Counted from the first letter of the stretch, positions 8,386-40,288 are shown. The stretch: 64,000 nucleotides of DNA from Candidatus Gottesmanbacteria bacterium RIFCSPLOWO2_01_FULL_42_22 (GCA_001779315.1 MFJU01000004.1:6753-70752); one strand, 5' to 3'. The notes: generated by a model not told the origin, from the sequence alone. A program made the numbers and translations.

Positions 8386-9771
8386 TTAATTATACATAGG
8401 TTTATTAACTCCATCCCATACCCCATTCCATTCTGCACCTTTTCCTCTTAAAATATCAGCGGTCAGTTTTATCAGATTGCTTGCCGCTTCCTTTTCTCCA
8501 TTTTCAACAAACCACTTTGTCTCCATTATGGATCTGTACAAAGTATGCATTGCCAGACCCCGTCTCTCTTTTTCTTCTGGATGCCTCCGTAAAAATTCAT
8601 CAGTCACAAGCTGTTGCCGTTTCCGGTCCAGGGCCAGGCCTGCAATTGACGCATCATAAATCTGCCCGGATAAACCCTTACGTTGAGCCCTATCTCCGCT
8701 GGTTAGCGTATACTCAGTCTCTCCTGATTGCGGATTTCTTGATTTATGAATATTTCTTGGGAAAAGCGTTCCGTGTGTAACTCGGGTTGCGGCAAGTAGG
8801 TTTTCATCCTTCTCGATCAGATGCTCTCCAACGTTTAATTCTGTTTTTCCGTTTTTAAATCGATATAAAGGCAAATTATTTTTTATCATCTCCTCAAGTG
8901 CCTCTGTAAAAGAAAATTCTGGATCACCGCCTTTAATACTCTCCGCTAATTCATCATATAATACTTTAACTTCAGGATTATCAGTCATTTTGTCAGTCAA
9001 TTCCTCCAGTCTGTCACCCCACCGCTTGTCCGATGATTTAAACTCATCAAAATCTCTTTCACGGTTATACCACCATTCGTCACCGCGGAAATTACAGCCT
9101 TCATTCCCTTCTTTTAACCAGCTATTAGGAATATCAATCTGATTGACATTTTCCCATTCTGCGAACTCATTTGTAGTTGGATGTGCCGCTTCCAAATAGT
9201 CAAATAAAATTCGCATTCCCTCAGGACTATCCGGATATTCATGCGGATTTGCCAAATGTATTCCTTTTTCAGGGCCGCCGGCTCCCAAAGATCTTAAATT
9301 TTTACGATATCCCGTAATAAAAGCATGTCCCTGATCCGTCTCAAAAATCTGAATGGCAATTGGTATCGGCGATTTGCCTTTATGTCCTGCTTCAATCCAT
9401 TTTTTTTTAACGTAAGCGGCGACGATTGTTCGGTAAGCCCATAAATTAGGTGCAAAATTGGGCTCATTACCGCCTTTGACCTCGGATGGTTTATGCAAAA
9501 CAAAACTATACTCCTGATCTTCAGGCTTTTCTTTTAGTGGAATAACTACCATTGGGCGACCTGACAATGCTTTTCTGTCCGCATCCGATTCAGTTTCAGG
9601 CTCTAAAATCCTGCCGCCCTGTAACGCTTTATTGTCAGGCCAAGCAAACCCTTTCCTACGAATGAAAACTGCCAGTTCTTGCGCTTGACTCTCAAATCCT
9701 TTTTTTATTGACCAGGGCATATCGGTAATGCTTTCAGGAGAATTTAACAATCTGTCAGGAGATGAATCCAT
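8386..9771 (-). CDS. Hypothetical protein (461 aa), apparently co-transcribed with glgA.
   Basis: Long ORF with only a 3-nt gap to the glgA start. It has no TM helix and no motif I can assign. It may be glycogen-related by context only. Confidence 0.55.
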   Translation of the reverse strand: MDSSPDRLLNSPESITDMPWSIKKGFESQAQELAVFIRRKGFAWPDNKALQGGRILEPETESDADRKALSGRPMVVIPLKEKPEDQEYSFVLHKPSEVKGGNEPNFAPNLWAYRTIVAAYVKKKWIEAGHKGKSPIPIAIQIFETDQGHAFITGYRKNLRSLGAGGPEKGIHLANPHEYPDSPEGMRILFDYLEAAHPTTNEFAEWENVNQIDIPNSWLKEGNEGCNFRGDEWWYNRERDFDEFKSSDKRWGDRLEELTDKMTDNPEVKVLYDELAESIKGGDPEFSFTEALEEMIKNNLPLYRFKNGKTELNVGEHLIEKDENLLAATRVTHGTLFPRNIHKSRNPQSGETEYTLTSGDRAQRKGLSGQIYDASIAGLALDRKRQQLVTDEFLRRHPEEKERRGLAMHTLYRSIMETKWFVENGEKEAASNLIKLTADILRGKGAEWNGVWDGVNKPMYN

Positions 9772-9830
9772 AAAATCATATAGGGACGGTCCTTTGATAT
9801 ACCGTCAGGACAATCCGGAAATTAATTACT

Positions 9831-10880
9831 TTATAACTCCAATATTTTTTTATAAACTGATTCGTAATCGGCAACCATTTTTTCCTTTGAGAAATTCTCC
9901 ACGACCCGAGCTCTGCAATCACCTCTTTGTATCCTGTCAATTTCCCTGACCGCATGCACCAGGCCGCCAACCCCGGACTCCGTATCAACCGTAAAACCGG
10001 TTTTGCCGTCCTCAACAATCTCGGGGACCGAACCGCAGTTGTAGGCAACTACCGGTGTTCCACAGGCCATTGACTCGACCATCACCAGGCCGAACGGTTC
10101 ATGCCAGGTAATCGGAAAAAGGGTACAGATCGCATTGCCGTACAGACCGCTCGATGTCTCATGGTTTATCTCTCCGATAAAACTGACTTGTTTGCCGTCG
10201 ATCAAAGGTTTAATTTCATTTTCATAATACGCTCTGTCCGCCGGATCGATGGCCGCCGCGATGACCAGCGGCAGATTCAGTTTCCGGGCCGTCTCGATGG
10301 CCGGCAAAGGGCCTTTTTTTTCGACAATCCGTCCTACCCACAACAGATATTCGCCTTTGGTTTTTTCCACATACTCAAATTGGGAAATATCAATACCGTT
10401 ATAGACCGTCGCCGCAAAATTAAGTTCCCTCATGCCCAGCCTTTGGTTTTCGGAGATGCTGATAAAATTAAAGTGCTTAAAAGTCTCCAACACCCTTCTC
10501 TTTTCTTTGGGAATTTCACCCGGATAATATGAACCGTGGATCGTATGGACAACTGGAGTTTTAGAGAATTCAGCCTGGAACATGGCCAGATACTGGGCGT
10601 GGTTGTGGATGATGTCAAATTCATCTGCTCTTCGAAAACATTCCCGGTAATGGATCAGCGGCAAATACGGCAGGTCCTTGTTAAATCCGCTGTTGCCCAA
10701 TCCTTCCGGATAGACGCTGACCAGTTTAGCCCGGGTCTGGCTGTCGCCGCTGGCAAATAAAGTGACATCATGGCCCCGGTCGACCAGACCGTCAGCCAAT
10801 AGGGAAACGATTTTCTCTGTCCCTCCGTAAGCTTTCGGAGGCACGGATAAATAAGGCGGAGCTAAGATACCGATTTTCAT
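9831..10880 (-). CDS. Glycosyltransferase family 4 (GT1-fold).
   Basis: EPFGLVMVESMACGTPVVAYNCGSVPEIVEDGKTGF is the classical E-x7-E GT4 signature. The N-terminus KIGILAPPY...YGGTEKIV is also typical. Confidence 0.85.
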   Translation of the reverse strand: MKIGILAPPYLSVPPKAYGGTEKIVSLLADGLVDRGHDVTLFASGDSQTRAKLVSVYPEGLGNSGFNKDLPYLPLIHYRECFRRADEFDIIHNHAQYLAMFQAEFSKTPVVHTIHGSYYPGEIPKEKRRVLETFKHFNFISISENQRLGMRELNFAATVYNGIDISQFEYVEKTKGEYLLWVGRIVEKKGPLPAIETARKLNLPLVIAAAIDPADRAYYENEIKPLIDGKQVSFIGEINHETSSGLYGNAICTLFPITWHEPFGLVMVESMACGTPVVAYNCGSVPEIVEDGKTGFTVDTESGVGGLVHAVREIDRIQRGDCRARVVENFSKEKMVADYESVYKKILEL

Positions 10881-11716: not shown

Positions 11717-12148
11717 TCAGAAGGGGTTCAAGACTTCGATATCTTTTATTTCCTCAAAATCCGTATCATCAGAAATAATTGTCTTTATCTTATAAGTTTT
11801 CATATAAGCTACCAAAAATAAATCATAAACATAAATTTTTGGTTCCGAATTCATTAGCGAAATAAAAGATTTGAAAACAGCTTCATTCGGATATAGCACC
11901 CGCAAATTAGACCGCTGACTAAACAAATCAAGATCTTTGGCAATTTCCTTTTTGGATATTTTGAAATGTCTGGAAAAAACCGCCGAATATTCCAATAAAT
12001 TTTGGACTGTTAAAAATATGGTTGATGCTTTTTCTTCCAAATCATCAATTATCTCAAGCGTTCTTTTATGTTTAGCTGATTTCTTATCCTGCGAATAAAC
12101 AAGGATATTAGTATCAAGGAGATATTTTTTTCCGGAGATAATCATCAT
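11717..12148 (-). CDS. PIN-domain toxin (VapC-like).
   Basis: KYLLDTNILVY (D at the start of a PIN domain) and ...IISDDTDFEEI are present. It is paired with an overlapping upstream small ORF. Confidence 0.65.
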   Translation of the reverse strand: MMIISGKKYLLDTNILVYSQDKKSAKHKRTLEIIDDLEEKASTIFLTVQNLLEYSAVFSRHFKISKKEIAKDLDLFSQRSNLRVLYPNEAVFKSFISLMNSEPKIYVYDLFLVAYMKTYKIKTIISDDTDFEEIKDIEVLNPF

Positions 12149-12371
12149 AGATATCTTCTCTTTCTATCTTATTAATTCCTATACTGTATTTTCCCAACAA
12201 ATCAGTAAGTTTTTTTGCTTTTTTCTTTTTAAGAGTAATCCCGAATATCTCTTGTTTTAATCCCTGCTTCACCAAACCGGAGACACTCGTCTGTCTTTCC
12301 ACGGCAGTCAGTTTAGCGGCTTTTAACAAATCTTTAGGAATTATGACTGTAGTTCTGACATTTATATCCAT
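12114..12371 (-). CDS. Putative antitoxin (RHH/VapB-like) of the PIN toxin.
   Basis: The 85-aa ORF overlaps the PIN gene start and is predicted to encode a small basic protein. Its upstream region carries nested inverted repeats at 12421..12548. Confidence 0.45.
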   Translation of the reverse strand: MDINVRTTVIIPKDLLKAAKLTAVERQTSVSGLVKQGLKQEIFGITLKKKKAKKLTDLLGKYSIGINKIEREDIYDDYLRKKISP

Positions 12372-12618
12372 AATATAATCATACTAACATACAAACATAC
12401 TTATGTCAATCTCACTATTGGATTGATACTGTTCAGAGTTACGGACACAAAGTCATCCTGGTAAGCGAGGAAAGAGCGCATCCAGGATCCGTCGGGGATT
12501 CTGGACAAGCCAGAATGTCGATATTTGCCAGCGATTCTGAACAGTTACATTGGATCTAACTTTCACAATTCCGAATCGTTACATGTATATGCGTGATTCT
12601 GTAATTGATTGATGTAAT

Positions 12619-13020
12619 TTATTCTTTAACAATTTTCTTTGTTGAAGATTTGGAGAAGAAATAAATTATCCAACTTACTAGTGCCAAATCAGCTATTAAA
12701 TAATGACTGGAAAGAAAATCAGGAGTTAAACTTGAAGTACAAAATCTTGGAAAAAAAGGTTTAACTCCTCCATAACTGGGATTATCATTAGATGACTTTG
12801 ACACGATAGCCCTTCCCCAGGGGACTAAATATGAAAAATCTCTTTCAGTTCTGAAAGTACATCCGTTACCATAGATAAAAATTGGCAATCTGCTTACTAT
12901 AGCAAGAATAGACAATAAAATAGCTAATTTCAAGACTTTACTCCAGGGTTTTGAACGGATGACTATATAAATTATTACGGCTGTAATTCCTAATACCAAT
13001 GAAGAATAAAAGGCATACAT
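12619..13020 (-). CDS. Small multi-pass membrane protein, hypothetical.
   Basis: ORF with 3-4 hydrophobic helices, AT-rich. Confidence 0.4.
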   Translation of the reverse strand: MYAFYSSLVLGITAVIIYIVIRSKPWSKVLKLAILLSILAIVSRLPIFIYGNGCTFRTERDFSYLVPWGRAIVSKSSNDNPSYGGVKPFFPRFCTSSLTPDFLSSHYLIADLALVSWIIYFFSKSSTKKIVKE

Positions 13021-13056
13021 ATTTCTAATATATCATAATGGGGAAATGAAATTTTA

Positions 13057-13665
13057 CTATTTCCTTATCAGTAAATTTCTCAGAGCGTTTAATACTCTTT
13101 GTTTCATTGTTTTTTTGGATATATGATTATTGAAAACCATATCGAAATGCTCTGCTGTATTTTTTTGGGATTCATCAGAATAAGTAATATTAGTTTCTGA
13201 GCCTAATCCTGTCCTATTTGCAAATCTTGTTTGGACAGTTTCATCACTTATATCTATTTGCCAGCGGTCCAGATTGGGATAGTTAGTGGCGGCTCTGACC
13301 AGAGATCCGTTTTCATCTCTTACCCAAAAAAGCCTGTCTTCCCTGGTTGTTTGCTTTACCCCCCTTCTCTTTATTTCGTTTTCTTCAACCAGAACATCAG
13401 GGACTACTACCATATCATAATAAATTTGGGAATTGTCAGGTGCTCCTTCCCTGGCTATTTCAGCAAAATTCTCGGATAATATTACGTCGATGTTATAAGC
13501 CTTTTCCATCTCGCCGGTATTTGCATATCCCCGGCTTCTTGCCAATTCCTTTAATTTAGCTTCAAAAAAATTTCTTGCTGTCTGAGGTGTAGCTAAAGCT
13601 TCAACAATTGAATTAGGCCTTTCAGACGAACTGCTCTCTATAGGAATTGGCGTTAATTCTGACAT
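13057..13665 (-). CDS. Hypothetical protein (202 aa).
   Basis: ORF only, with no recognisable motif. Confidence 0.45.
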   Translation of the reverse strand: MSELTPIPIESSSSERPNSIVEALATPQTARNFFEAKLKELARSRGYANTGEMEKAYNIDVILSENFAEIAREGAPDNSQIYYDMVVVPDVLVEENEIKRRGVKQTTREDRLFWVRDENGSLVRAATNYPNLDRWQIDISDETVQTRFANRTGLGSETNITYSDESQKNTAEHFDMVFNNHISKKTMKQRVLNALRNLLIRK

Positions 13666-14021
13666 AATAATTAAAGCTTAACAGTTATTTACAAAATTTC
13701 AAACATACGGGATTTCTCAAACTTATTTTACTTATTGAAGTCGATATTTGACAATAGTACTAAAAATAGACTTTATATTTTAAAACCAATTGGACAGATT
13801 CCAATCTTGGGCTCCTCCATAATTTCCCTGGGCGATCCTATATTTTTTAAAAAGAATTCGTTTCTTTCTATATCATCGGCTGTTAAGTATTGAGATGAAC
13901 AGTCATTTTTATATTCAAACTGATAATGCCCGGGGGTCAAATTCATTCAGCTAAAAAATAAAAAAAGTACAAAGGTAGGGGAATTAATAAAATTATTTTA
14001 ATAATGTTCATAAAAATTAAA

Positions 14022-23382: not shown

Positions 23383-23877
23383 ATGAAAGTCCGCCAATTA
23401 ATGCGGTTAAAACCCAAAACAGTTACACCGGATACTCCTCTTGAGAGGGTATGGCAGATCGTTTCCGAACTCAAATTCCATATTCTGCCCGTTGTCGATG
23501 AAAATAACCGGCTCAAAGGCGTCATCACTGCCGAGGATCTTTTGAAGAATTTAGTACCCGACTACCGTAATTTCTTTTCCGAATTTTATCCGGATGCGCC
23601 CACCATTGATGATATTGTTGATCAAATCGAAAAACAAATCCGTTTGACAGCCCGCGATCTGATGAATAAAAAAGTCTATACCGCAAATAGCGATCAGGAT
23701 GTTTTCAAAGCCCTGTCCAAAATGATGGTTTACAACGTCAGAATCCTGCCTGTCTTAAATGATGATGAAAAATTGGCCGGTTTTATCGTGGAAAAGGATA
23801 TCTTCAAATACCTCTTCCAAAAGGAAAAACACATTTTTGCCAAACTGCAAAAACTAAAGCAGAAGAAATCCTCCTAA
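23383..23877 (+). CDS. CBS-domain pair protein.
   Basis: Two CBS motifs (HILPVVDENNRLKGVITAEDLL and ILPVLNDDEKLAGFIVEKDI). Confidence 0.75.
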   Translation: MKVRQLMRLKPKTVTPDTPLERVWQIVSELKFHILPVVDENNRLKGVITAEDLLKNLVPDYRNFFSEFYPDAPTIDDIVDQIEKQIRLTARDLMNKKVYTANSDQDVFKALSKMMVYNVRILPVLNDDEKLAGFIVEKDIFKYLFQKEKHIFAKLQKLKQKKSS

Positions 23878-25632: not shown

Positions 25633-26301
25633 CTACAGATATTTTTTGGCCAGGCGCAGAGATTCCTTGGCAAAAAAATCCTGCACTTCTGCCCATTTTA
25701 CCGGTTTGATCATCGCCGGCATATTGTCTTCTTTAGCATCTTCAAAAAATCCTAAAGCCTTGATGATAACGTAAAGATTATTACCGGTATCGCCGAATTT
25801 TTTTACGTATAAATCAATCATCGTCTCAACTGTGAATTTTTGAGTGATGAAATATAAATCAATATAATCCCTTTTAGTCGCTCTGCCGGAAATTGCCGAA
25901 AGTTTCATTGCTGCAATATCCTCCACCGAAGCAACTTTGATGCTTTTGAATATTGAAAATTTACCGATTAGCGGATAGTTATATCGGAATAAACTTAACT
26001 TTACACCTTCAAATTCTCCCAATATGGTATGGGGTGGTTCAAGCAATGTAACAGAGAATTTACCAAGTTTGGTTAATTGAACGGGTATATCTTTTGCTAA
26101 AATACTCTTTTGGGTATAAAAATCCAAATCAACGCTTTTCCGATGACCTAAATGAAGTGCTAAAGCCGATCCTCCGGCTAAATAACAGGAAGTAAAAATC
26201 TCGGATTGTCCTAATTTGGCCAATGCATTTTGCGCATTGACCGGTAAGGTTCCCGCATGCATTTGATCTCCTCTATTGGAATATTTAACAGTCGTGACCA
26301 A
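25633..26301 (-). CDS. AbiEii/DUF1814-like nucleotidyltransferase (type IV toxin-antitoxin toxin family).
   Basis: YLAGGSALALHLGHRKSVDLDFY matches the GG(T/S)AL...R.S.DiDf NTase motif. The 5' end overlaps the upstream small ORF, so the true start may be internal or non-ATG. Confidence 0.55.
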   Translation of the reverse strand: MVTTVKYSNRGDQMHAGTLPVNAQNALAKLGQSEIFTSCYLAGGSALALHLGHRKSVDLDFYTQKSILAKDIPVQLTKLGKFSVTLLEPPHTILGEFEGVKLSLFRYNYPLIGKFSIFKSIKVASVEDIAAMKLSAISGRATKRDYIDLYFITQKFTVETMIDLYVKKFGDTGNNLYVIIKALGFFEDAKEDNMPAMIKPVKWAEVQDFFAKESLRLAKKYL

Positions 26302-28392: not shown

Positions 28393-29523
28393 TTAAGGAC
28401 TGGCCATATCCGGCTCGGAATAACTGTAAAGGCTTTTGTCAATAATAGTTGATTTATTCCGATTCTTAATGTTAAAGAGAAAAAGATTTCCGTTATCCTC
28501 AAGTACTATTCTATTTCTGTCTCTGCAGGCAAAATCATCACCCATAACGATCAAATTTGGATCATCTAACCTCCAATTAGTTTGATAAATAGCCCTTCTT
28601 TTAATATCAGAGTTTATAGCGGTAAAAAGCATTCTGGGGCCGCAAAATTGGGGATTTTGCGGATTAAATACCGAATTATTTACATCCATTGTAAAATAAC
28701 CGCCAGCTAGCAAATCATGAAACTGCAGATATTTACCTGTATTTCTAAAGGTGCTTCCCTCATCATTGGTATCTATTTCTTGACCTTGAACATAATAAGA
28801 AATAATCTTCCTGTTTGTATCATAGGTAAAGAATTGAGGTTGAGAATTTAAGAAGTTTGCTACAGTCAAAGAAAAGCTGACCAGATCGGGATTATAAGGA
28901 GATATAACAATCTGATAAATATTACTCACCTCCGGCTCCAAACCTGATGCTTGTTTATCTTCTTCCGGCCAATGTTTTGAGGCAAAAATTGACCGGCTGA
29001 TTTTGTTTTTTTGACCCATCATAACTTCCTCTATACCCTGGTTTATTTTCTGCTCTCCTAAAATTTCCGTTAAGCTGTTTTTTACTGTTGTATGCCTCCA
29101 CCTCCATAAACTGTTTCTACTGGAAAAAATCACCCCGCAATTATCATTTTCAACTACAGGATGCTCGGCTTTATCAAGCTGTGTATCCGGAAAAATCTCA
29201 TTTAATCGTATTGGTTCCCTTTCTCTCCACCCTTCTGATAAATCAAAAAGCACTATTTGTGATTTATTCGTGATTTTATTTGTTTCAACAGCAGCCAGTA
29301 ATTCCTGATCACAAATTTCACCTGCCAAAGGAGCTGGTCCTGTGTTTCCCGGAATTACTCCATTCATGGCCAAATCCTCCAGATCAGGAGCAGCCGCCAG
29401 ATAAGCGCAGACCAGAGCGAACATCCCGACAGCTTGTCCCCACCTTCGCCAACTGATTTTTTTTAGTCGGTCCAAAACCCTTAAATTACCATTGTGGGTC
29501 CCGACTTTCCTTTCTGTCTCCAT
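28393..29523 (-). CDS. Membrane-anchored hypothetical protein (376 aa).
   Basis: ORF with an N-terminal signal anchor (AVGMFALVCAYLAAAP). I recognise no domain. Confidence 0.5.
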   Translation of the reverse strand: METERKVGTHNGNLRVLDRLKKISWRRWGQAVGMFALVCAYLAAAPDLEDLAMNGVIPGNTGPAPLAGEICDQELLAAVETNKITNKSQIVLFDLSEGWREREPIRLNEIFPDTQLDKAEHPVVENDNCGVIFSSRNSLWRWRHTTVKNSLTEILGEQKINQGIEEVMMGQKNKISRSIFASKHWPEEDKQASGLEPEVSNIYQIVISPYNPDLVSFSLTVANFLNSQPQFFTYDTNRKIISYYVQGQEIDTNDEGSTFRNTGKYLQFHDLLAGGYFTMDVNNSVFNPQNPQFCGPRMLFTAINSDIKRRAIYQTNWRLDDPNLIVMGDDFACRDRNRIVLEDNGNLFLFNIKNRNKSTIIDKSLYSYSEPDMASP

Positions 29524-29634
29524 AAAAAATACTCCAGGGTATTATAGACTATATTGCGGAATTATCAGCCTATCCGCTGCCTGTTGATCAATAAATTCCC
29601 GGCATCTTGACCATCTGTTTGAGATAGGGCTAGA

Positions 29635-30849
29635 ATGAAATTATTCCCGATGCTTTATTTTTCAGAATTATTCAATAAACAGGTTGCCACAGACAAAGGC
29701 AAAATTTTAGGCCAATTGAAGGATCTTTTTTTCCTTTACGGTGAAATCCCCACCCTTACCATATTGGCCGTTGAGGATAAGGACAGCCGGAAATTAATTC
29801 CGCTCAGTTTCCTTAAAAAAATCAACCATACCTTAACCGTAGCTCATGATTATGAAGCAGTCGAACAGACTGAAAGCGAACTGTCGGTGGCCGGCAATCT
29901 CTTAGACCGGCAGGTGATTGACCTTAAAGGAGACAAAGTCGTGCGTATAAATGATGTCATCATCTCCGAAAGCCCCAATTACTATATTTCCGGGATTGAT
30001 ATTAGCGTCTGGGGGGTCTTAAGAAGACTGGGACTTCTGAAACCGGTTATCAATATACTTCGCCAATTAAAAATTACTGTCCTTCAGGAGGCTCTTTCCT
30101 GGGGAGAGATCCAAAACCTGGAGCTAATGCAGGGGAAAATCCAGCTTAAGGTCAAAGAGGAAAAACTGGCCAAAATCCGTCCCGAGGACCTGGCTGATTA
30201 TCTGCAAACGACCAACATCGATAATATCAAAACTTTTCTCTCAAACCTTAATCTGGAAAAGGCCGCCGAGGTTTTTGCCTCTCTGACCGGTGCCCATCAG
30301 ACCGAACTTATACGCCAATTCAAAGCGGAAATGGCAGCCCGTTTTGTTGATCTTTTAGACCCGGATGAAGCAGTCGATATCCTTCTGACTGTTTCCGAAA
30401 AAAGGAGACAAAGTATTTTAGAGTTTGTCTCTTCCGAAAAAAAAGAGGAACTGTCGCATCTTCTTCGTCACTCCTCCACTCCCATGGGCGAACTGATGAC
30501 TACCGAATATCTGGTCGTCAATTCCAATCTGACGGCTAAAGAAATCATCGATAAAATCAGGCTCGAGACTTCCGACTTTGCCTGCCTTTATGCGGTCTAT
30601 GCATTGAATGAAAAAAGCCAACTCGTCGGCGTCTTTTCCCTCCATGAGCTTTTGATGCAGCCGCCCGATAACCCGGTTTATAAATTCATGGTAGCTAACC
30701 CGGTGACTTTACATCTTTCGACACCGGCCGATATCGCTCTAAATAGGCTGATCAGATACAATCTGTCTGCTCTGCCGGTCATCAATAACCAGAAACACAT
30801 CCTGGGTATGGTCACTTTGGATGATTTGTCCGATTATATAAAAAGATAA
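29635..30849 (+). CDS. Cytosolic Mg2+-sensing module: PRC-barrel-like N-terminus, MgtE N-terminal domain and CBS pair, with no membrane domain.
   Basis: The MgtE_N-like helical region (DLADYLQTTNIDNIKTFLSNLNLEKAAEVFASL...) is followed by two CBS motifs. The ORF ends without TM helices. Confidence 0.65.
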   Translation: MKLFPMLYFSELFNKQVATDKGKILGQLKDLFFLYGEIPTLTILAVEDKDSRKLIPLSFLKKINHTLTVAHDYEAVEQTESELSVAGNLLDRQVIDLKGDKVVRINDVIISESPNYYISGIDISVWGVLRRLGLLKPVINILRQLKITVLQEALSWGEIQNLELMQGKIQLKVKEEKLAKIRPEDLADYLQTTNIDNIKTFLSNLNLEKAAEVFASLTGAHQTELIRQFKAEMAARFVDLLDPDEAVDILLTVSEKRRQSILEFVSSEKKEELSHLLRHSSTPMGELMTTEYLVVNSNLTAKEIIDKIRLETSDFACLYAVYALNEKSQLVGVFSLHELLMQPPDNPVYKFMVANPVTLHLSTPADIALNRLIRYNLSALPVINNQKHILGMVTLDDLSDYIKR

Positions 30850-30876
30850 TTGCACACCCCCCAGGGGTGAATCCCG

Positions 30877-32190
30877 ATGAAATCAGGAACACCTCCGGGG
30901 AATATAAAACATATGAATTCAGTATCAGATATCAAACATAAAATTTGGATTTTCCGCAGGAGAATATTAATTTTCCTGGCAGTCTTTGGACCCGCCACTA
31001 TTGCCGCCATGGCCGATAATGACGCCGCCGGTGTCGCTACCTATCTTCAGGCGGGTGCTAAATTAGGTTATCCCATCCTTTTTATACTGATTATTGTCAC
31101 TATTCTTCTGGCTATTACTCAGGAAATGGGTATACGGTTAGCCATTATAAGCCGCAAAGGTTTAGGTGATCATATAAGGGAGAAATATGGTCTTAAAATA
31201 TCCATTTTCGTCTTTTCCGCGCTTCTTCTGGCAAATCTGGGCACTATCACGGCCGATGTTTCCGCCATCAAGATTATAAGCGAACTTTTTAATCTGCCTT
31301 CTCTGATTACTATCGTTTTTTTGCTAGTCCTTGCCTCACTCTTTGTCGTCAGGGGTAACTACCGCATCAACCAAACTCTGATGCTTTTATCCAGCCTCTT
31401 TTTTCTTACATTTATCTTCTCAGCTGTCAAAGCTAAACCTGACTGGGGCTTGGCTTTGTCCAATCTTTTCTTTCCTCATGGTGTGACTTTCGACCGCACA
31501 TATTTGATTAGTTTCCTGGTCATGGGGATGAGTATCTTGGGCACAACCATCACTCCTTGGGGACAGTTTTTTATCTCCTCATTCTCTTTTGACAAAAATA
31601 TTGATCCGCAAAAACTTAAATATTCCCAACTGGAAACCTATATAGGAGCCTTCCTGACTGATTTCTTTTCCTTCTTCATGATAGTTTCAACTGCAGCCAC
31701 CCTGTTTGTCTACGGCTTGACTATTACCACCGGGGAAGAAGCAGCTTTAGCCATAAAACCATTTGCCGGTCAATTTGCCAGCCTCATTTTTGCCTTCGGG
31801 ATTTTAAATGCCGGTTTTATGGGTATGATCATTATCGCTTTAACCACCGCTTATGCTTTTTCCGAATTCTTTGGGTTTTCAGGCAGTTTGGATGCAGCCT
31901 ACCACCGCGGTAAAATGTTTTACCGGCTATTCCTTTTTCAAATCATCACCGCCTCTCTCATCGTCCTTCTGCCTTCGGTCAACCTTTTCCGGCTTGCTCT
32001 CTTTACCCAAACCATCAATGCCATGATGCTGCCGGCTGTTTTTTATTTTCTGCTTAAATTTACCGCTGATCCCAAAATTATGGGAAAGGAAGTCAACAGC
32101 CCCTTCAAGCACTATTTTGCCCTGATTTCAATAGCAGTCATCCTGCTCGCCTCATTCGCCACACTGCTGGTTGGCATCTTCAACTTATAA
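30877..32190 (+). CDS. NRAMP-family divalent metal (Mn2+/Fe2+) transporter.
   Basis: GPATIAAMADNDAAGVATYLQAGAKLGY aligns with the NRAMP GPGfl.s.ayiDPGn...aGa.fGy motif. It has about 11 TM helices. Confidence 0.7.
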   Translation: MKSGTPPGNIKHMNSVSDIKHKIWIFRRRILIFLAVFGPATIAAMADNDAAGVATYLQAGAKLGYPILFILIIVTILLAITQEMGIRLAIISRKGLGDHIREKYGLKISIFVFSALLLANLGTITADVSAIKIISELFNLPSLITIVFLLVLASLFVVRGNYRINQTLMLLSSLFFLTFIFSAVKAKPDWGLALSNLFFPHGVTFDRTYLISFLVMGMSILGTTITPWGQFFISSFSFDKNIDPQKLKYSQLETYIGAFLTDFFSFFMIVSTAATLFVYGLTITTGEEAALAIKPFAGQFASLIFAFGILNAGFMGMIIIALTTAYAFSEFFGFSGSLDAAYHRGKMFYRLFLFQIITASLIVLLPSVNLFRLALFTQTINAMMLPAVFYFLLKFTADPKIMGKEVNSPFKHYFALISIAVILLASFATLLVGIFNL

Positions 32191-32215
32191 TTCCAATAGG
32201 CTACAATGAATTAAA

Positions 32216-33253
32216 ATGGTTTTAGAACACAAGAAACTGCTGAAAATATTCACCAATCCGACATTGCCGGTCACCAAAGGCCTGGAAATCCTCTCCTCAA
32301 TCCGCCATAAACCAAACAGCAACGCTAAAACTCTGCCGCCGATCGAAAAAATCAAGCATGGAAATAATAATCTGGTAATTTTACGAAATCCGACAGAAGA
32401 AAATATCCGCCACCTTAAAAAAAACTATGGTATACATCCCCTGCATTTAGAAGACATTGTCTCTACAGTCCAAAGGCCGAAAATTGACGAGGAGGAAGAT
32501 TACATCTTTTTTGTCTTCCATTTTCCCCAGTTTAACCCGGAAACCAACCGCATCAACTCCATTGAAGTCGATTTCTTCCTGACAGAAAATGATCTTTTGG
32601 TTATTATTGATACGCAATTCCAAACGATTGAGGAAATTATTCAGAATATTGCCGGAAAAGATAGTGAAAAGAAGAAATATTTTGCCGGAGGGCCCGGCAT
32701 GCTTTTCTACCGTATTCTGGATAATCTGGTCGATTCGATTTTTCCCCTGATTGACCTCTTTGAACGCGGTATTGAAAAAATCGACCGTGAGGTCTTTGCC
32801 GATGACCCAAAAAATGTCGCCGTCCAATTGTCATATTTGCGCAGGAATGTCATTTTTTTCCAAAGCCTGGTCAAACCGGAACTGAATTCCTTTGCTTCCA
32901 TTGAACAGAGTCCCCACCCGTTAATCAATGAAGAACTGAAGACATATTTTTCCAACATTACCGACCACTTGAAGAAAATCTGGGACAGGCTGGAAGATGT
33001 CATCGAGCTTTCCAACAACCTCTCCCAAACCTTCGAAAGCTATCTGTCATTCAAAACCAATGAAACCATCAAGATTCTGACCATGTTTTCGGTTGTCCTT
33101 ATGCCACTGACTCTTCTTTCCGGCATTTACGGCATGAATCTGGCCTTCCTGCCCTTGGCAGAACACCCGCAAGCTTTGACCTATATCACTCTTTCCATGA
33201 TTTCTGTTATTGTCATTATGATCGGCTTTTTCAAATACAAAAAATGGCTCTGA
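32216..33253 (+). CDS. corA: CorA-family Mg2+/Co2+ transporter.
   Basis: A C-terminal two-TM region carries the YGMNLAFLP (GMN) signature. Confidence 0.85.
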   Translation: MVLEHKKLLKIFTNPTLPVTKGLEILSSIRHKPNSNAKTLPPIEKIKHGNNNLVILRNPTEENIRHLKKNYGIHPLHLEDIVSTVQRPKIDEEEDYIFFVFHFPQFNPETNRINSIEVDFFLTENDLLVIIDTQFQTIEEIIQNIAGKDSEKKKYFAGGPGMLFYRILDNLVDSIFPLIDLFERGIEKIDREVFADDPKNVAVQLSYLRRNVIFFQSLVKPELNSFASIEQSPHPLINEELKTYFSNITDHLKKIWDRLEDVIELSNNLSQTFESYLSFKTNETIKILTMFSVVLMPLTLLSGIYGMNLAFLPLAEHPQALTYITLSMISVIVIMIGFFKYKKWL

Positions 33254-33257
33254 TGTT

Positions 33258-33812
33258 ATGAAAAATAAACCTGTCTTAATCGATGAAGTTCTTGACCATT
33301 TGCCCCATCTGATCCGCCTGCGGCTTCCCTGGTTAATGTTAGGACTTTTTATCGCTTTCCTGTCGACCATGTTTGTTTCCCGGTTCGAAGAAATTATTTC
33401 GGAAAATATCAGCCTGGCTTTTTTCCTGCCGATGATTGTTTATATGAGTGACGCTGTCGGCACCCAGAGCGAAACTATTTTCGTGCGGCAACTGCAGATG
33501 GGTAAAATGAATTTAAAGAAATACCTTCTAATGGAGTTTCAGATCGGTTTATTTATGGGCATATTTTTAGGCTCTGCCATATTCGCCGCTGCCTATCTTT
33601 GGTTAAAGTCAATGCCGGTAGCTCTCACCGTTGGTTGGGCGATGTTTACCAATATTCTGATTGCTCCGACCATCGCTGTCGTTATCCCGGAATTTTTATA
33701 CAAAAGGCATTCTGATCCGGCCCTGGGCGCCGGCCCCTTTGCCACCGTCATCCAGGACACCTTGAGCCTAGTCATCTATTTCCTCATCGCCGCATTGATA
33801 ATCCGGGCCTGA
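33258..33812 (+). CDS. mgtE: MgtE transmembrane (channel) domain as a stand-alone protein.
   Basis: It has five TM helices. The C-terminus GPFATVIQDTLSLVIYFLIAAL matches the MgtE GPFiTT.tDi.gl.iYf motif. No N-terminal cytosolic domain is present in this ORF. Confidence 0.65.
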   Translation: MKNKPVLIDEVLDHLPHLIRLRLPWLMLGLFIAFLSTMFVSRFEEIISENISLAFFLPMIVYMSDAVGTQSETIFVRQLQMGKMNLKKYLLMEFQIGLFMGIFLGSAIFAAAYLWLKSMPVALTVGWAMFTNILIAPTIAVVIPEFLYKRHSDPALGAGPFATVIQDTLSLVIYFLIAALIIRA

Positions 33813-33868: not shown

Positions 33869-34117
33869 ATGGAAATGCAAAAAATAGTTTCAATCACCAG
33901 CCAAGGTCAATTAACCATTCCTCAATCCATGCTTAAATCACTGGGAATAACAGGCCCGGTTAAAGCCATAATCAGAAAAAAAGAAAATACTTTGTTAGTT
34001 GTGCCGAAAAAAGATTTCTGGTCACTGGCTGGAGTATTAAAATCTGATGTAAAATTATCAGATACCCAATTGAGGGAAGCCCGGGAGGTTTTTTCATCCA
34101 AATGGAGCAGGCAGTAG
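33869..34117 (+). CDS. AbrB/MazE/SpoVT-type antitoxin.
   Basis: The ~80-aa product carries a swapped-hairpin motif (ITSQGQLTIPQSMLKSLGI). It overlaps the downstream PIN gene. Confidence 0.6.
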   Translation: MEMQKIVSITSQGQLTIPQSMLKSLGITGPVKAIIRKKENTLLVVPKKDFWSLAGVLKSDVKLSDTQLREAREVFSSKWSRQ

Positions 34118-34482
34118 ACACCAATATTATCCTCAGATACCTGGTTGGAGACGATAAATTGCAACAGCAAAAGGCCCAAACTATATTTCAAAAAGCTAAA
34201 GATGGGAAAATATCATTAGTCATAAAACCCTTAATTGTGGCGGAGGCTTGCTTTGTGCTGGAATCGTTTTATCAAAGGGGCAGAGAAGAAATTGCCGATG
34301 CTTTCGAAGTCTTCTTATCCCAAAAATGGCTGAAAGTGGAAGAAAGGGAAACATTACTGGCTTTGTGGGATTGGTATAAAAAAAACTTTCATTTCGTTGA
34401 TAGTTATTTGCTCTCCTGGGCTAAATTAAATGCAGGAAAAATAGTCACCTTCGATAAAAAACTACTATCCTCTTCCTCATAG
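34102..34482 (+). CDS. PIN-domain toxin (VapC-like).
   Basis: VDTNIILRYLVGDD (first Asp), ...AEACFVLES and ...FVDSYLLS are present (PIN acidic residues). Confidence 0.65.
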   Translation: MEQAVDTNIILRYLVGDDKLQQQKAQTIFQKAKDGKISLVIKPLIVAEACFVLESFYQRGREEIADAFEVFLSQKWLKVEERETLLALWDWYKKNFHFVDSYLLSWAKLNAGKIVTFDKKLLSSSS

Positions 34483-34820: not shown

Positions 34821-36392
34821 ATGCTAAATTTAGAACAACAAGAAACTAGACCTAGCTTAACTGGAGAAGAATTGTTAACTGCCAGTCTGGCTCTTGAAAA
34901 ACAATTAGCTCAAATAGATTTATATAGTACTCTTAGGCAATCAGATATCCCAACAGACATTGCTGAAGTTTATGAAAAATTAGGAGCAGAATTAACTCCA
35001 TTGGAGGAAAGAAAATCATCTACTTTCAAACGTCTTGGTCAGGGAATAAAAAGAGAACTTTGGGATAGTACTCTTGGAAGATCTATTGCTGGGACAGTAG
35101 TGATTACAACCATCGGAGAAATCATAAACCAAGGCGGTCCAATAGAAGCATCAGAGGTTTTTATTGCTTTTTATAACAGGTTAGTAGGTTGGGCTGGTGA
35201 AACAATCGAAAATATTGAAGCTTGGCCTATGATTTCAGCTGCTGGTGTAGCTTTGCTCTGGACGCTATTCAGTCCCAAAATCTATGAAATAATTTCTGCA
35301 CGAGACAGTGCAAAAACTGTAAAAACTTTATCACAAGATGCGGAGGCGAGAGAGAAACGCACAGCTGCTTTGCTTTTACATCAGGAAGGAAATGCTGATT
35401 TATTTGGCATAGGACCAAACATCCAGATTGACGTTGGCAAATCTGACCCCTCTGCACTTCTATTGATTGATTTATTTCATAAGTTAGGTATCGAAGTGGT
35501 GACTTATTGGGATCAAAGGAATATTCACTTCGCTCAAAACAAATACTGGGAAAAAACATATAACGATTGGACAAATCGTGAGACATTATTAAGAGGCAAT
35601 GTTCAAGAAAGTCTTTGTTCAATAATTTTAGTTTCCAATGGTGATGATGTCTTTCTATCGTCAAGAATACAAGATCCAACAAGGGAAGCGCAGGATATGA
35701 CCGATAATGAAGCTATTGGTTCGATCAACGCTAGAAATTCTGTCCGTAATAACTTAGGGCTCCCGGCAACGCCGCATATTATGGTCACCAACCCTCAACG
35801 CCTGATCGATATCGATTTGGTTAAAAGTGGAAGTGAATCATTTCATCCTAAAACAGTTGGTCAAGTTATCCGGGAAAAATATCCGAATGTGCATATTATT
35901 GATCCGGATCAATTGATTTTTGAAGAACTGGCTCAATTAGCCTTCAAAGAAAAATCTAAAAAGAATCTCCCCCTTGAATTGATTACTAATTCTGTCAGGG
36001 CATCTGAATATAAAACAAATTTAAGACTAGTAATAAATGAATACAATCAAAAAATCGGAAATGATAAGACAAAAAATATCAGATTTTCCACAAAAAAAGA
36101 CGGTCTAGAAACGTTGAGTATTATTTATGGTTCAACGGATGAAGATACTATAGCCCAACTCGAGACATATAAAGATGATTTTTCTCAAGAAGGTGAACTT
36201 GTAGCCATTATAAACGACCCAGAGAAAGTTGCACGATTACCCGAAGGATCAAAATATATATGTGTCGGTACCGTTATTGCTAAAGCTATATTCAAAAAGT
36301 TTATTGAATTAGTTGCTCAAGGAGCAATTGAATTACCACAGCAAATAACCCTACCCCCAGAACCGGTACAAAATCAAGAATTGGCAGACTAA
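34821..36392 (+). CDS. Hypothetical protein (523 aa), cytosolic, with no recognisable domain.
   Basis: Long ORF in an AT-rich segment, translationally coupled to the preceding 78-aa ORF. Confidence 0.5.
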   Translation: MLNLEQQETRPSLTGEELLTASLALEKQLAQIDLYSTLRQSDIPTDIAEVYEKLGAELTPLEERKSSTFKRLGQGIKRELWDSTLGRSIAGTVVITTIGEIINQGGPIEASEVFIAFYNRLVGWAGETIENIEAWPMISAAGVALLWTLFSPKIYEIISARDSAKTVKTLSQDAEAREKRTAALLLHQEGNADLFGIGPNIQIDVGKSDPSALLLIDLFHKLGIEVVTYWDQRNIHFAQNKYWEKTYNDWTNRETLLRGNVQESLCSIILVSNGDDVFLSSRIQDPTREAQDMTDNEAIGSINARNSVRNNLGLPATPHIMVTNPQRLIDIDLVKSGSESFHPKTVGQVIREKYPNVHIIDPDQLIFEELAQLAFKEKSKKNLPLELITNSVRASEYKTNLRLVINEYNQKIGNDKTKNIRFSTKKDGLETLSIIYGSTDEDTIAQLETYKDDFSQEGELVAIINDPEKVARLPEGSKYICVGTVIAKAIFKKFIELVAQGAIELPQQITLPPEPVQNQELAD

Positions 36393-36459: not shown

Positions 36460-36795
36460 ATGCGTTTTTTGATTGATCTTCTTATCCGGGCTTTGGTGCT
36501 TCTGTTAACCGCCTATATCGTGCCCGGTTTTAAAATCGGTGATTACACCACAGCAGTTATGGTTGCTCTGGTTTTAGCCCTTCTCAATCTTTTGCTTAAA
36601 CCCATTTTGGTTATCCTGACCCTGCCGGCCACTATCCTTACTCTTGGCCTTTTCATGTTTGTCATCAATGCGATTCTTCTTATTATCGCCTCCCGTTTAA
36701 TTTCCGGCTTTCAAATTGCCGGTTTCGGCACAGCTATCCTGGCCTCAATCGTCATCACCGTCATCGGGAGCCTCCTTAATATCCTCATCAAATAA
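36460..36795 (+). CDS. Four-TM membrane protein of the phage-holin-4-like superfamily (DUF-type).
   Basis: LLTAYIVPGFKI with four hydrophobic helices across 111 aa, a pattern typical of the Phage_holin_4_2 family. Confidence 0.5.
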   Translation: MRFLIDLLIRALVLLLTAYIVPGFKIGDYTTAVMVALVLALLNLLLKPILVILTLPATILTLGLFMFVINAILLIIASRLISGFQIAGFGTAILASIVITVIGSLLNILIK

Positions 36796-38149: not shown

Positions 38150-40288
38150 TCAGTAGATATCGAAGCTGATTTCCTTACAGCCGACCTTGAGGTTGGTCAC
38201 CGGATGGAAAGTCCCCAGCTGCAGTGATTTGGAAGTCGGTGCCAAAACCGTCGGCTTGGAATTGTCGAAATCAGGAATTCCCGTCGGTGTCGCTACTGCC
38301 AGAGGCTGAAGATTGTTTCTGTTATTCAACAAAAATACTCTCGACAGGAAATTGAGCAGGGAATCAAGAAGAGTCGTTTTTTTGGGTGTTTCAGTGCCCA
38401 GGACCGAGGCTGTGATACGGCCGCAGGCAATTTTCACCCAGATGCGGTAATGACCGGCGACACCCTCTCCAACCGGTACCAAAAAATCCCATTGGGTCTG
38501 GTATCTAGTGTCTGATCCGGGAACTTTTTCGGCTGTAATGGGATCGGAAACGGCGATTTCCGTTCCGTCTTTCTCCACATGGTATGTCATTGTCCGCACT
38601 TCCGTTGTATCCGGAAAGAGCGAGACTGCAAATGTCGTTATTGTCACTGTTTCCCCGCCGATGAAATTGCCGGCATATGTCACGCTGTCGCAATTGCAGG
38701 CTGCCGGAGGTGTCGGACTAGGTGATGCACTGATCCGCGGTTCGCGGTCCACATCGCATTGCGGATTGGATTCCGGACAGAACGGGCATTTGTCAGGACA
38801 TTGGTTCGGCTCGTCAGGACTGCATGGTTCACCGCAGGCAGGACCTTCGGGAGGCGGTTCTGCCGGCACGCATTTGGGGTTGGTGGCCGGGCACGATGGA
38901 CACTCCTGCGGGCAGTCAAAGGCTTCTTCCGGATTGCAGGGTTCGCCGCATGCCGGGGCTCCTGGTGTCGGAGTCGGCGGAATATCATCCCTGTCGACAC
39001 AGATCGGATTGGTATCGGGACAGAAAGGGCATTCCTGCGGACAGACATTTATCTTGTCCGGGTTGCAGGGTTTGCCGCAGGCAGGACCTTCGGGCGGAGG
39101 TTCTGCCACTTTACATACAGGATTAACTACCGGACAGGACGGACAATCCTGGGGACAATCAAAGGCTTCATTGGGATTACAGGGTTCTCCGCAGACCGGG
39201 GCTCCCGGTGTCGGACTTGCCGGCGGCGGTGTTCCCGATCCGCCGGGTGGAGGTGTTCCCGATCCCCCCGGTGGCGGTGTTCCCGATCCGCCGGGTGGAG
39301 GTGTTCCCGTTCCGCCGGGTGGAGGTGTTCCCGTTCCCGGACCCGGTGTATTTGTCGCAGGCGGTGCCCCACGGCTTAAGCTGACTACACAGGCAGCTTC
39401 CGGTGCCGACAGTCTACCGTCGGGTGTTACAAAATAAGCATTGATAGAAACTGAACTGGGTATCGCTCCCGTACTGGTATCTTGTACGAATACGTCTTCA
39501 TATTTCAAATCTCTTGAACCTCCCTTATTTGATGTTTTGTTGCCGTTGTAAATTAGCTGGACGGAACCGGTAGGACATCCTTGAATTTCAGTCGTACTTT
39601 CCCCTGTTCCTTTGGTAACGCAAAAGGGTTTGGCATTGCCCGGACCATAAAGATTGTCCTTATTGTAAAAAGCATAGAACAGGGATGCGATCTCCTCTTT
39701 TGCTTCAGAAGTCAATATGAAACTGCCTCCGGGAAATACCTCATTCTTGTCAATTGTTTCCTTAAGGCAAATTCCCGGTCTGGCAGGGGTCGGCGTCGGC
39801 GTTTCCGTCGGCGTACTGGTGGGAGGCGCTGGAGTGTTTGTAGGCGGTACCGGAGTACTTGTCGGTGACGGTCCGGGCGTATCGGTAGGCCCCCTTCCAC
39901 CCTTATCCTGGCATTTGTAACAAACTGTTGTATTATTACATTCGCCGCAATCAATAGTCTTCTTATCCACCTCTTCTTCACCGGCTTTACATTCATTAGT
40001 CTGATAACTTGGCGGACAATCAGGTGCCTCACAAATAGTAATACATTTTCCTTTATATTCAGTACATTCTTTTATCCCGTCGCCATCATCATCTCCTACC
40101 TTTACACAAGGATCACAACAACCCTGAAATGTACATTCTGTGCTTCCGCAGCTGGTTGAACAGGTGTCACAACTTCGGCAACTGTCTGCGCCTGCTCCGC
40201 TTACTCTATTTGGGGAAAAAAGAGACAGACCAAAAAAGATAATAAATATAATAAATAATATTATTTTTGGTTTGCAAATTATTCTCAT
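38150..40288 (-). CDS. Large secreted Cys-rich, Pro/Thr-rich surface protein (712 aa) with tandem Cys-module repeats and a paralogous C-terminal domain.
   Basis: It has a signal anchor, a CxxC-rich N-terminal region and PT linkers. Four tandem ~40-aa modules (ACGEPCNPEEAFDCPQECPSCPATNPKCV...) are followed by a (GTPPPGGSG)n run. Its C-terminal ~150 aa (CNCD...ITITT...SLFPDTT...SLQLGTFHPVTNLKVGCKEISFDIY) is shared with the 42386..43402 gene. Confidence 0.7.
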   Translation of the reverse strand: MRIICKPKIILFIIFIIFFGLSLFSPNRVSGAGADSCRSCDTCSTSCGSTECTFQGCCDPCVKVGDDDGDGIKECTEYKGKCITICEAPDCPPSYQTNECKAGEEEVDKKTIDCGECNNTTVCYKCQDKGGRGPTDTPGPSPTSTPVPPTNTPAPPTSTPTETPTPTPARPGICLKETIDKNEVFPGGSFILTSEAKEEIASLFYAFYNKDNLYGPGNAKPFCVTKGTGESTTEIQGCPTGSVQLIYNGNKTSNKGGSRDLKYEDVFVQDTSTGAIPSSVSINAYFVTPDGRLSAPEAACVVSLSRGAPPATNTPGPGTGTPPPGGTGTPPPGGSGTPPPGGSGTPPPGGSGTPPPASPTPGAPVCGEPCNPNEAFDCPQDCPSCPVVNPVCKVAEPPPEGPACGKPCNPDKINVCPQECPFCPDTNPICVDRDDIPPTPTPGAPACGEPCNPEEAFDCPQECPSCPATNPKCVPAEPPPEGPACGEPCSPDEPNQCPDKCPFCPESNPQCDVDREPRISASPSPTPPAACNCDSVTYAGNFIGGETVTITTFAVSLFPDTTEVRTMTYHVEKDGTEIAVSDPITAEKVPGSDTRYQTQWDFLVPVGEGVAGHYRIWVKIACGRITASVLGTETPKKTTLLDSLLNFLSRVFLLNNRNNLQPLAVATPTGIPDFDNSKPTVLAPTSKSLQLGTFHPVTNLKVGCKEISFDIY
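39222..39345. repeat. Tandem 27-nt DNA repeat (~4.5 copies) inside the 712-aa gene. It encodes GTPPPGGSG repeats.
   Basis: ggcggtgttcccgatccgccgggtgga is reiterated with minor variants. It generates the antisense Pro/Gly-rich + strand ORFs in the track. Confidence 0.7.

Follow-up and report, generated by a model that had tools for sequence, protein, structure and literature searches.

Positions 29635-33812 of a 64,000-nucleotide (nt) stretch of DNA from Candidatus Gottesmanbacteria bacterium RIFCSPLOWO2_01_FULL_42_22 (the window, meaning the whole stretch that was analysed) contain four genes, here called A to D, that probably form a Mg2+-acquisition operon of a Microgenomates (Gottesmanbacteria-like) bacterium of the Candidate Phyla Radiation (CPR), composed of two separable modules, [A-NRMT] and [CorA-D]. 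Gene A (29635-30849, 404 amino acids (aa)) encodes a soluble protein with a PRC-barrel, a second β-barrel, an MgtE_N domain and a CBS pair; gene B (30877-32190, 437 aa) an NRAMP-related Mg2+ transporter of the NRMT clade; gene C (32216-33253, 345 aa) a CorA Mg2+/Co2+ channel with a YGMN motif; and gene D (33258-33812, 184 aa) a minimal, transmembrane (TM)-only MgtE of five helices. All four lie on the + strand, separated by 27 (A/B), 25 (B/C) and 4 nt (C/D), and an 88%-identical contig (L001; loci used for comparison carry L numbers) repeats the A-B-C-D order exactly. Given the NRMT signature of B and the GMN motif of C, the three membrane proteins are all predicted to be Mg2+ importers. An initial annotation of the region had described A as the N-terminal domain and CBS pair of MgtE with no membrane domain, D as the five-TM channel domain only, and the genes between them, on the same strand, as NRAMP-family and CorA transporters; it suggested that the cluster is a divalent-cation operon in which the two MgtE halves presumably reassemble. 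Its reading of the genes is borne out by Pfam (MgtE_N in A, MgtE PF01769 in D, Nramp and CorA between them), by TIGR00400 and a fold search for A, and by a five-helix model for D. The cation theme also holds and can be narrowed to Mg2+, since B is of the NRMT type. However, reassembly is largely unsupported, given the pairing of A with NRMT, the usual occurrence of D without A, the presence of CorA-D alone in a relative, the lack of a plug helix, and the discordant ancestry of the two proteins.

Four domains can be distinguished in A, all encoded on the + strand. A PRC-barrel domain (residues 6-70, 29650-29844; Pfam PF05239, E=1.9e-7) is all-β in the AlphaFold2 (AF2) model, with a predicted local distance difference test score (pLDDT) of ~90. 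It is followed by a second small β-barrel (residues 82-161, 29878-30117), which is seen in the AF2 secondary structure, has no Pfam match, and holds the conserved motif LLD(K/R)Q(I/V)ID(L/I)xG. The helical MgtE_N domain (residues 182-280, 30178-30474; PF03448, E=3.2e-17) aligns with residues 19 to ~125 of Thermus thermophilus MgtE (TtMgtE), and the CBS pair (residues 282-403, 30478-30843; PF00571 in two stretches, E=1.7e-18) aligns with the TtMgtE CBS domains up to residue 252. No MgtE membrane domain is detected in A by the Pfam scan, and A covers positions 20-252 of the 450 in the full-length mgtE model TIGR00400. The whole model of A has a pLDDT of 80, and its top 10 fold matches in the PDB (Foldseek) are all MgtE cytosolic domains (E~1e-18). 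The true start of A is probably M6, at ATG 29650 ('MLYFSEL'), because alignments of homologs and the gene junction in L093 point there. This start, the two β-barrels and the NRMT type of B are additions to the initial annotation. A belongs to a family of ~400-aa proteins of the Patescibacteria; the source names for this family and that of D include Gottesman-, Roizman-, Ames-, Davies-, Doudna- and Peregrinibacteria, all Patescibacteria. Among the best 120 homologs of A nearly all are ~400 aa long (a few are fragments) and contain MgtE_N and CBS, mostly with PRC as well, and none contains PF01769. Since PRC-MgtE_N-CBS proteins of this length have no membrane domain, their annotation as 'magnesium transporter' is wrong.

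The Mg2+ sites of MgtE have been defined structurally, with Mg2 and Mg3 (E258, D259) located on the plug (PMC5882242). When A is mapped onto TtMgtE (with the numbering verified at seven Ile landmarks, and residues counted in 34 sequences), site Mg4 is retained as D244 (32/34) and D397 (29/34), Mg6 as D248 (34/34), and Mg7 as E212 (acidic in 30/34). Site Mg5 is half lost, and Mg2/Mg3 have no counterparts in the alignment with TtMgtE. The acidic residues of Mg4, Mg6 and Mg7 are conserved both in A proteins linked to NRMT and in those linked to a SAM_HAT-like gene (79 locus-derived sequences).

The genomic partners of A carry much of the case for an [A-NRMT] module. When the A-family alignment was run against a single genome for each species, 442 genomes had a relative, and 80 loci were fetched; 76 of these extend far enough downstream to be counted. 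The gene directly after A encodes an NRMT at 47 of the 76, most often with a 4-nt overlap, a soluble SAM_HAT/DUF62-like protein of ~274 aa at 25, and something else at 4. D lies within 10 kb of A at 2 of the 76 loci and CorA near A at 1. The A-NRMT adjacency is also present in every context of A that was inspected individually. In a neighbor-joining tree of the A family, the SAM_HAT-linked proteins form a single derived clade. Together with the counts, this indicates that the A family is a putative soluble sensor module that pairs with whichever gene follows it, usually NRMT. A similar association has been reported for the NrmT group, most of whose genes are accompanied by a gene for a homolog of the MgtE N-terminal cytoplasmic domain, and it reaches beyond the CPR; the MgtE-like fragment is not required for transport, and a role in feedback regulation or as a chaperone was speculated upon [Shin et al. 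2014, PMC4072509].

Two further observations concern these loci. In the complete Roizmanbacteria chromosome CP066689.1 (L006) a 1.9-kb gap after the NRMT gene that had seemed gene-free is filled by a 16S rRNA gene (8598-10113, - strand, 1370 bits). In addition, many records of metagenome-assembled genomes with the A-NRMT pair are titled 'uncultured Gammaproteobacteria bacterium' (for example L008, L011 and L013) and one 'Methanosarcinales archaeon', which suggests placeholders or mistaken organism names.

B matches Pfam Nramp (E=7e-66), and its best solved relative is EleNRMT (7QIA; 220 bits, residues 28-432 aligned), compared with ~50 bits for MntH structures; its score on the MntH NCBIfam model, 99 bits, falls short of the cutoff of 430. 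At the metal site, helix 1 has D-A-A-G instead of DPGN, and helix 6 has T-T-I-T-P-W instead of A-x-x-M-P-H. B thus retains the Asp but has Gly for Asn, Thr for Ala and, on helix 6b, Trp for His, and it has lost the classical Met. Ramanadane et al. 2022 (PMC8806188) describe this combination as the NRMT binding-site signature. EleNRMT moves Mg2+ without coupling to H+ (PMC8806188). B is therefore classed, by its binding-site residues, as a predicted NRMT-type Mg2+ transporter and not as a classical Mn/Fe NRAMP. C matches Pfam CorA (PF01544) from position 9 to 290 of the 292 in the model (192 bits, E=2e-56) and carries the GMN motif as 'GIYGMNL'.

D contains a single repeat of the MgtE membrane domain (PF01769, E=4e-27) as its only Pfam domain, with neither an N nor a CBS domain, and covers positions 282-447 of the 450 in TIGR00400. 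Its model shows five long helices (pLDDT 88, predicted TM-score 0.83) and superimposes on the crystal structure of the TtMgtE TM domain (4U9L) with TM-scores of 0.84/0.87 and a root-mean-square deviation of 2.4 Å. D167 aligns with the pore Asp of TtMgtE, D432, and is nearly invariant in the D family. The best 120 homologs of D have a length of ~180-220 aa, apart from one fragment, and contain PF01769 only; the eukaryotic SLC41 proteins are a tandem-TM analogue of such TM-only MgtE. In four distant lineages the D family has no MgtE_N/CBS gene, and thus no A, within 8 kb, and D is found after a P-type ATPase, after a two-component system or among unrelated genes. A metagenome scan with the D alignment gave 42 TM-only loci and 42 longer forms, mostly of a CBS-TM type; 17 of the TM-only loci have 2.5 kb or more of sequence on each side, and one of these 17 has an A gene nearby.

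Three of the loci hint at other recurrent partners of the minimal pore: in L088 (5387-8564) a P-type cation ATPase gene, itself preceded by a histidine kinase, overlaps at its end with the gene for the TM-only MgtE; in L091 (6164-8564) the pore gene follows a two-component system, and in L131 (721-1672) it is followed by CorA. MgtE proteins of the CBS-TM class, ~315-355 aa long with a plug helix and no N domain, are abundant in the same metagenomes (L105, 336-1304; L112, 9485-10552; and ~30 others among L135-L173). This class is the closest domain-bearing relative of the TM-only family. Both share, in CPR, the TM2 sequence S-D-A-V-G-T-Q-(S/T)-E (D residues 63-72), with D65 and E72 invariant, where TtMgtE has G-G-N-T-G-N-Q-S-A; the two extra TM2 carboxylates, predicted to lie near the pore, could alter selectivity or gating.

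Whether A and D might nevertheless work as one MgtE depends on the element that joins sensor and pore. Closure of MgtE is passed on by plug helices that pack against TM2 and TM5 (PMC8104411). The plug helix is absent from A and D and present in the nearest CBS-TM relatives of D, whose TM2 motif, SDAVGTQTE, is of the kind seen in D. The plug of these relatives reads 'LHEENTEDFL..GV', compared with 'LEAEATEDIHKLGAV' within residues 253-283 of TtMgtE, a segment that fits the published positions of E258, D259 and I260 as well as the aligned A284. The conclusion about the plug rests on the CBS-TM sequences and does not depend on this TtMgtE segment. The sequence of A stops at a position that corresponds to TtMgtE residue ~254, short of the plug helix; D begins just after the plug position of its CBS-TM relatives, and its residues 1-14 are coil (pLDDT 54). 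Because A stops before the plug and D starts after it with an unstructured stretch, neither carries the MgtE gating element; without this link between sensor and pore, A and D cannot rebuild a canonical MgtE. The N-terminal sequence 'xDDxxE...RLPWL' of D was considered as a remnant of the plug helix and rejected: it aligns to the post-plug linker, is unstructured in the AF2 model, and is equally present in D proteins that have no A nearby.

The ancestry of the two proteins is also discordant. A profile of the D family scores CPR CBS-TM proteins at 166-242 bits and TtMgtE at 79 bits, whereas a CBS-only profile of A scores TtMgtE at 88 bits and the same CPR CBS-TM proteins at 44-65 bits. On sequence grounds, A and D did not arise by a recent break in a single mgtE. 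Furthermore, in another Gottesmanbacteria genome, GCA_000999095.1, D (87% identical to that of the window) and CorA (83%) occur as CorA-D only, and neither A nor NRMT is found within 7 kb of them. The backbone of genes around this pair is the same as in the window (CBS protein, NDK, M16 peptidase ... holin-like gene). Since CorA-D exists there without A and NRMT nearby, the operon of the window is best explained as a juxtaposition of [A-NRMT] and [CorA-D].

Several observations weigh against this two-module reading. The clade of the window shows five gene orders, and in each of them at most one gene lies between D and A-NRMT: A-B-C-D in the window and L001; A-B followed by a convergent D in L002, L003 and L008; D, a 206-aa gene and then A-B, with CorA on the other strand, in L004, L005 and L009; D-A-B with 1 nt between the TAA of D and the ATG of A in L093; and D-A-B with a 9-nt gap in L094. 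In the A tree, those A proteins that have a D gene close by group into a single clade; they are 52-88% identical to that of the window, and adjacency that is kept through rearrangement, with A down to 52% identity, usually means functional coupling. Moreover, D is the sole one of the three transporters without a sensor of its own. The persistent linkage could instead be simple inheritance, which cuts both ways, because the surrounding backbone (NDK, M16 peptidase and holin-like gene) is itself conserved in the clade. The A-NRMT side of the reading has its own difficulties. Even the functional link between A and NRMT is putative, since the MgtE-like fragment had no effect on complementation by the A. 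capsulatum transporter (Shin et al., PMC4072509). Finally, paralogs of A pair with a soluble SAM_HAT-like enzyme; thus, the family is not restricted to transporters.

The linkage in the clade speaks for a split MgtE that does function, or for a detachable sensor shared between transporters, in which A would dock non-covalently on a D dimer, possibly on NRMT too, and close D at high Mg2+. Besides D keeping its place by A through the rearrangements, A and D cover nearly non-overlapping parts of TIGR00400, A retains Mg2+-site residues, and D itself lacks a sensor. Even so, this arrangement is rather unlikely. MgtE closure works through contacts of the plug with TM2 and TM5, and neither protein has a plug or the Mg2 and Mg3 residues; the D family almost always occurs without A, and an 87%-identical D sits with CorA only; the CBS domains of A are nearer to TtMgtE than to those of the nearest relatives of D; and in the window two genes separate A from D, while C and D are 4 nt apart. 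The D proteins linked to A are neither monophyletic nor distinctive at the N-terminus, in a D tree that is poorly resolved. Whether the trees of A and D agree, as co-evolution would predict, was also examined, and the comparison was set aside: D-linked A proteins are monophyletic and A-linked D proteins are not, and the test is weak because of the poor resolution of the D tree. Across genomes the two halves do not consistently co-occur, and their co-location is confined to one clade. Synteny bears on the initial annotation in two ways: related genomes largely show A and D as unrelated proteins, a result that the initial annotation had itself named as refuting, A pairing with NRMT and D normally lacking A, with the partial exception that D remains beside A-NRMT in its own clade. 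That A acts on D in trans at all is improbable, and so, to about the same degree, is the broader form of the idea, in which one portable A sensor gates two unrelated importers, NRMT and the minimal MgtE pore, through plug-independent docking, possibly via the β-barrels.

The cruder possibility that a single mgtE was broken by a frameshift, a misassembly or an insertion draws on the complementary domain content of A and D and on nothing else, and its likelihood is negligible. A and D are kept apart by two intact transporter genes, both architectures have a constant length in hundreds of independent assemblies, the separation of sensor and pore genes is itself conserved among the homologs of A and of D, and the 88%-identical contig has the four genes in the same order. 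Conserved lengths and a recurring operon rule out an artefact or pseudogene, a check that the initial annotation had proposed.

The pairing of A paralogs with an enzyme raises another alternative, that A is a general regulator or chaperone responsive to Mg2+ and/or adenine nucleotides, which would gate no transporter directly and might act instead in the buffering or delivery of Mg2+ or Mg-ATP or in the control of enzymes, its place in the operon reflecting co-expression. The relevant paralogs, of PRC-MgtE_N-CBS architecture, are followed after 4-10 nt not by a transporter gene but by one for a soluble, SAM hydroxide adenosyltransferase-like protein of ~274 aa with PF20257/PF01887 (DUF62) (L044, 10001-12053; also L028, L065 and ~22 others among L018-L087). 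They have the same acidic residues as A, and their pattern suggests that an MgtE-type sensor may have been re-used for enzyme control. CBS pairs commonly bind adenosyl ligands, and ATP is reported to bind the CBS domain of MgtE (PMC5529423). The lack of effect of the fragment on complementation by the transporter in the work of Shin et al., and their suggestion of a chaperone, also fit such a role. However, the 4-nt overlap with NRMT is kept across very divergent genomes and is typical of subunits made in a fixed ratio, and the association with the NrmT group reaches beyond the CPR; a general regulator is thus doubtful as an account of A.

In the two-module reading, the first module would consist of B (NRMT) with A as its conserved soluble Mg2+-sensing partner, and the second of CorA (C) with the self-standing minimal MgtE pore (D). 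At millimolar cytosolic Mg2+ the N and CBS domains of A would clamp together through the conserved carboxylates of Mg4, Mg6 and Mg7, as the cytosolic domain of MgtE does. Clamped A would then restrain the NRMT made from the same message, docking on it probably through the β-barrels. We infer here the binding of Mg2+ by A, the physical contact between A and B, and the direction of the regulation. Because NRMTs are not H+-coupled and lack a cytosolic sensor, they would need feedback, and the sensor would hence be expected with NRMTs and not with classical NRAMPs. CorA has a cytosolic regulatory domain, and thus an Mg2+ sensor, of its own, through which C would regulate itself. D, which keeps the selectivity Asp, would conduct Mg2+ as a minimal channel that is unregulated or regulated in some other way; it must do so in the numerous lineages without an A gene nearby.

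The signals around the operon were also surveyed. A promoter-like site, TTGACC-18 nt-TAGAAT (29607-29636, + strand), with 10/12 consensus matches lies just 5' of ATG 29650. However, the region has 13 such sites, found by consensus match only, versus a shuffled expectation of 10.6, which is not above chance. Since neither promoter nor terminator scans gave counts clearly over the shuffled expectation, these sites serve as annotation only. The gap between gene A and the divergent gene upstream is only 111 nt. No Rfam family matches at its gathering score in the window, and none at E<=1 in 29300-29800, 5' of gene A; the M-box riboswitch, which is frequent, though not universal, for the ancillary genes associated with NrmT, was not found upstream of gene A.

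The neighbourhood of the operon contains a number of other genes. A stand-alone CBS-pair protein of 164 aa (23383-23877, + strand; Pfam E=1e-29) is a candidate small-ligand sensor near the Mg genes, with a syntenic counterpart both in L001 (1583-2074) and at the Gottesmanbacteria locus L175 (1136-1630). A 222-aa open reading frame (ORF) at 25633-26301 (- strand) matches, by position and length, a gene of L001 annotated AbiEii (nucleotidyltransferase toxin), and an overlapping 106-aa ORF upstream of it may be its partner gene. The ORFs that flank the operon, one of 376 aa (28393-29523, - strand) and one of 523 aa (34821-36392, + strand), have no Pfam match; the 376-aa gene lies between the M16 peptidase gene and gene A, a place where L001 has nothing. 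Downstream, at 33869-34482 (+ strand), is a VapBC-type pair, in which a MazE/AbrB-like antitoxin gene (82 aa, a weak match) overlaps that of a PIN-domain toxin (126 aa). This pair and two unassigned ORFs lie between gene D and the holin-like gene (36460-36795), which in L001 follows D directly. Further away, a 712-aa ORF without a Pfam match (38150-40288, - strand) occupies the only GC-rich stretch of the window (52% versus ~42% elsewhere), and the region 12001-14000 is low in GC (34%) and has solely short ORFs (133-202 aa, - strand).

The locus and its relatives narrow, without answering, two questions: what the MgtE-like protein that accompanies NRMTs does, and how TM-only pores avoid an overload of Mg2+. 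The sensor family is ancient, is tied to NRMT genes by overlapping or near-abutting frames, and keeps the Mg2+-clamp residues of MgtE; it has been re-used with a soluble enzyme, yet lacks the plug helix needed for MgtE-style gating. The D-A-NRMT tricistrons are compact three-gene systems that bear on whether one sensor serves two unrelated transporters.

Compared with canonical MgtE (Thermus thermophilus, PDB 2ZY9/2YVX), the window has the same N and CBS cytosolic fold, with the Mg4/Mg6/Mg7 acidic residues, in A, and the five-helix pore domain with the pore Asp in D. It differs in having two polypeptides with two genes between them, in lacking the plug helix and Mg2/Mg3, in the partial loss of Mg5, in the TM2 sequence of D (SDAVGTQSE versus GGNTGNQSA), and in the different nearest relatives of A and D. 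B shares with EleNRMT (Eggerthella lenta, PDB 7QIA; PMC8806188) the Asp and Gly of helix 1, the Thr of helix 6, and the Trp in place of the first helix-6b His; at the position of the classical Met, B and one other CPR homolog (L006) have Thr, whereas EleNRMT has Ala. C has in common with CorA (TIGR00383/PF01544) a full-length Pfam match, the GMN motif and two C-terminal TM helices, although its TIGR00383 score of 187.2 bits is slightly under the NCBIfam equivalog cutoff of 200.75. TM-only MgtE has been catalogued as a class in both bacteria and archaea (Zhao et al. 2025, bioRxiv 10.1101/2025.05.26.656215), and D resembles it in being the PF01769 membrane domain alone, without N or CBS; D, with ~185 aa and a single repeat, belongs to a CPR-wide subfamily and is not of the 'mini-N' type, residues 1-14 being disordered in the model. 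The NrmT operons with an MgtE-like gene (Shin et al. 2014; C. acetobutylicum Ca_c0685, A. capsulatum ACP2976/2977) likewise have a soluble MgtE N+CBS homolog directly upstream of a transporter with the NRMT signature. The window differs from these operons in its lineage, the CPR, in the lack of a detected M-box riboswitch, in the two extra N-terminal β-barrels (PRC type) of A, and in placing the pair in one operon with CorA and a TM-only MgtE. A literature search found nothing that mentions a PRC-barrel together with MgtE, and the double β-barrel/PRC extension of the sensor, the pairing of its paralogs with a SAM_HAT-like enzyme, and the clade-specific clustering with a TM-only MgtE appear to be undescribed in the literature searched. 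Every component of the operon is itself of a described kind: the pair of NrmT and an MgtE fragment (2014), the NRMT structure (2022), TM-only MgtE (2025) and CorA.

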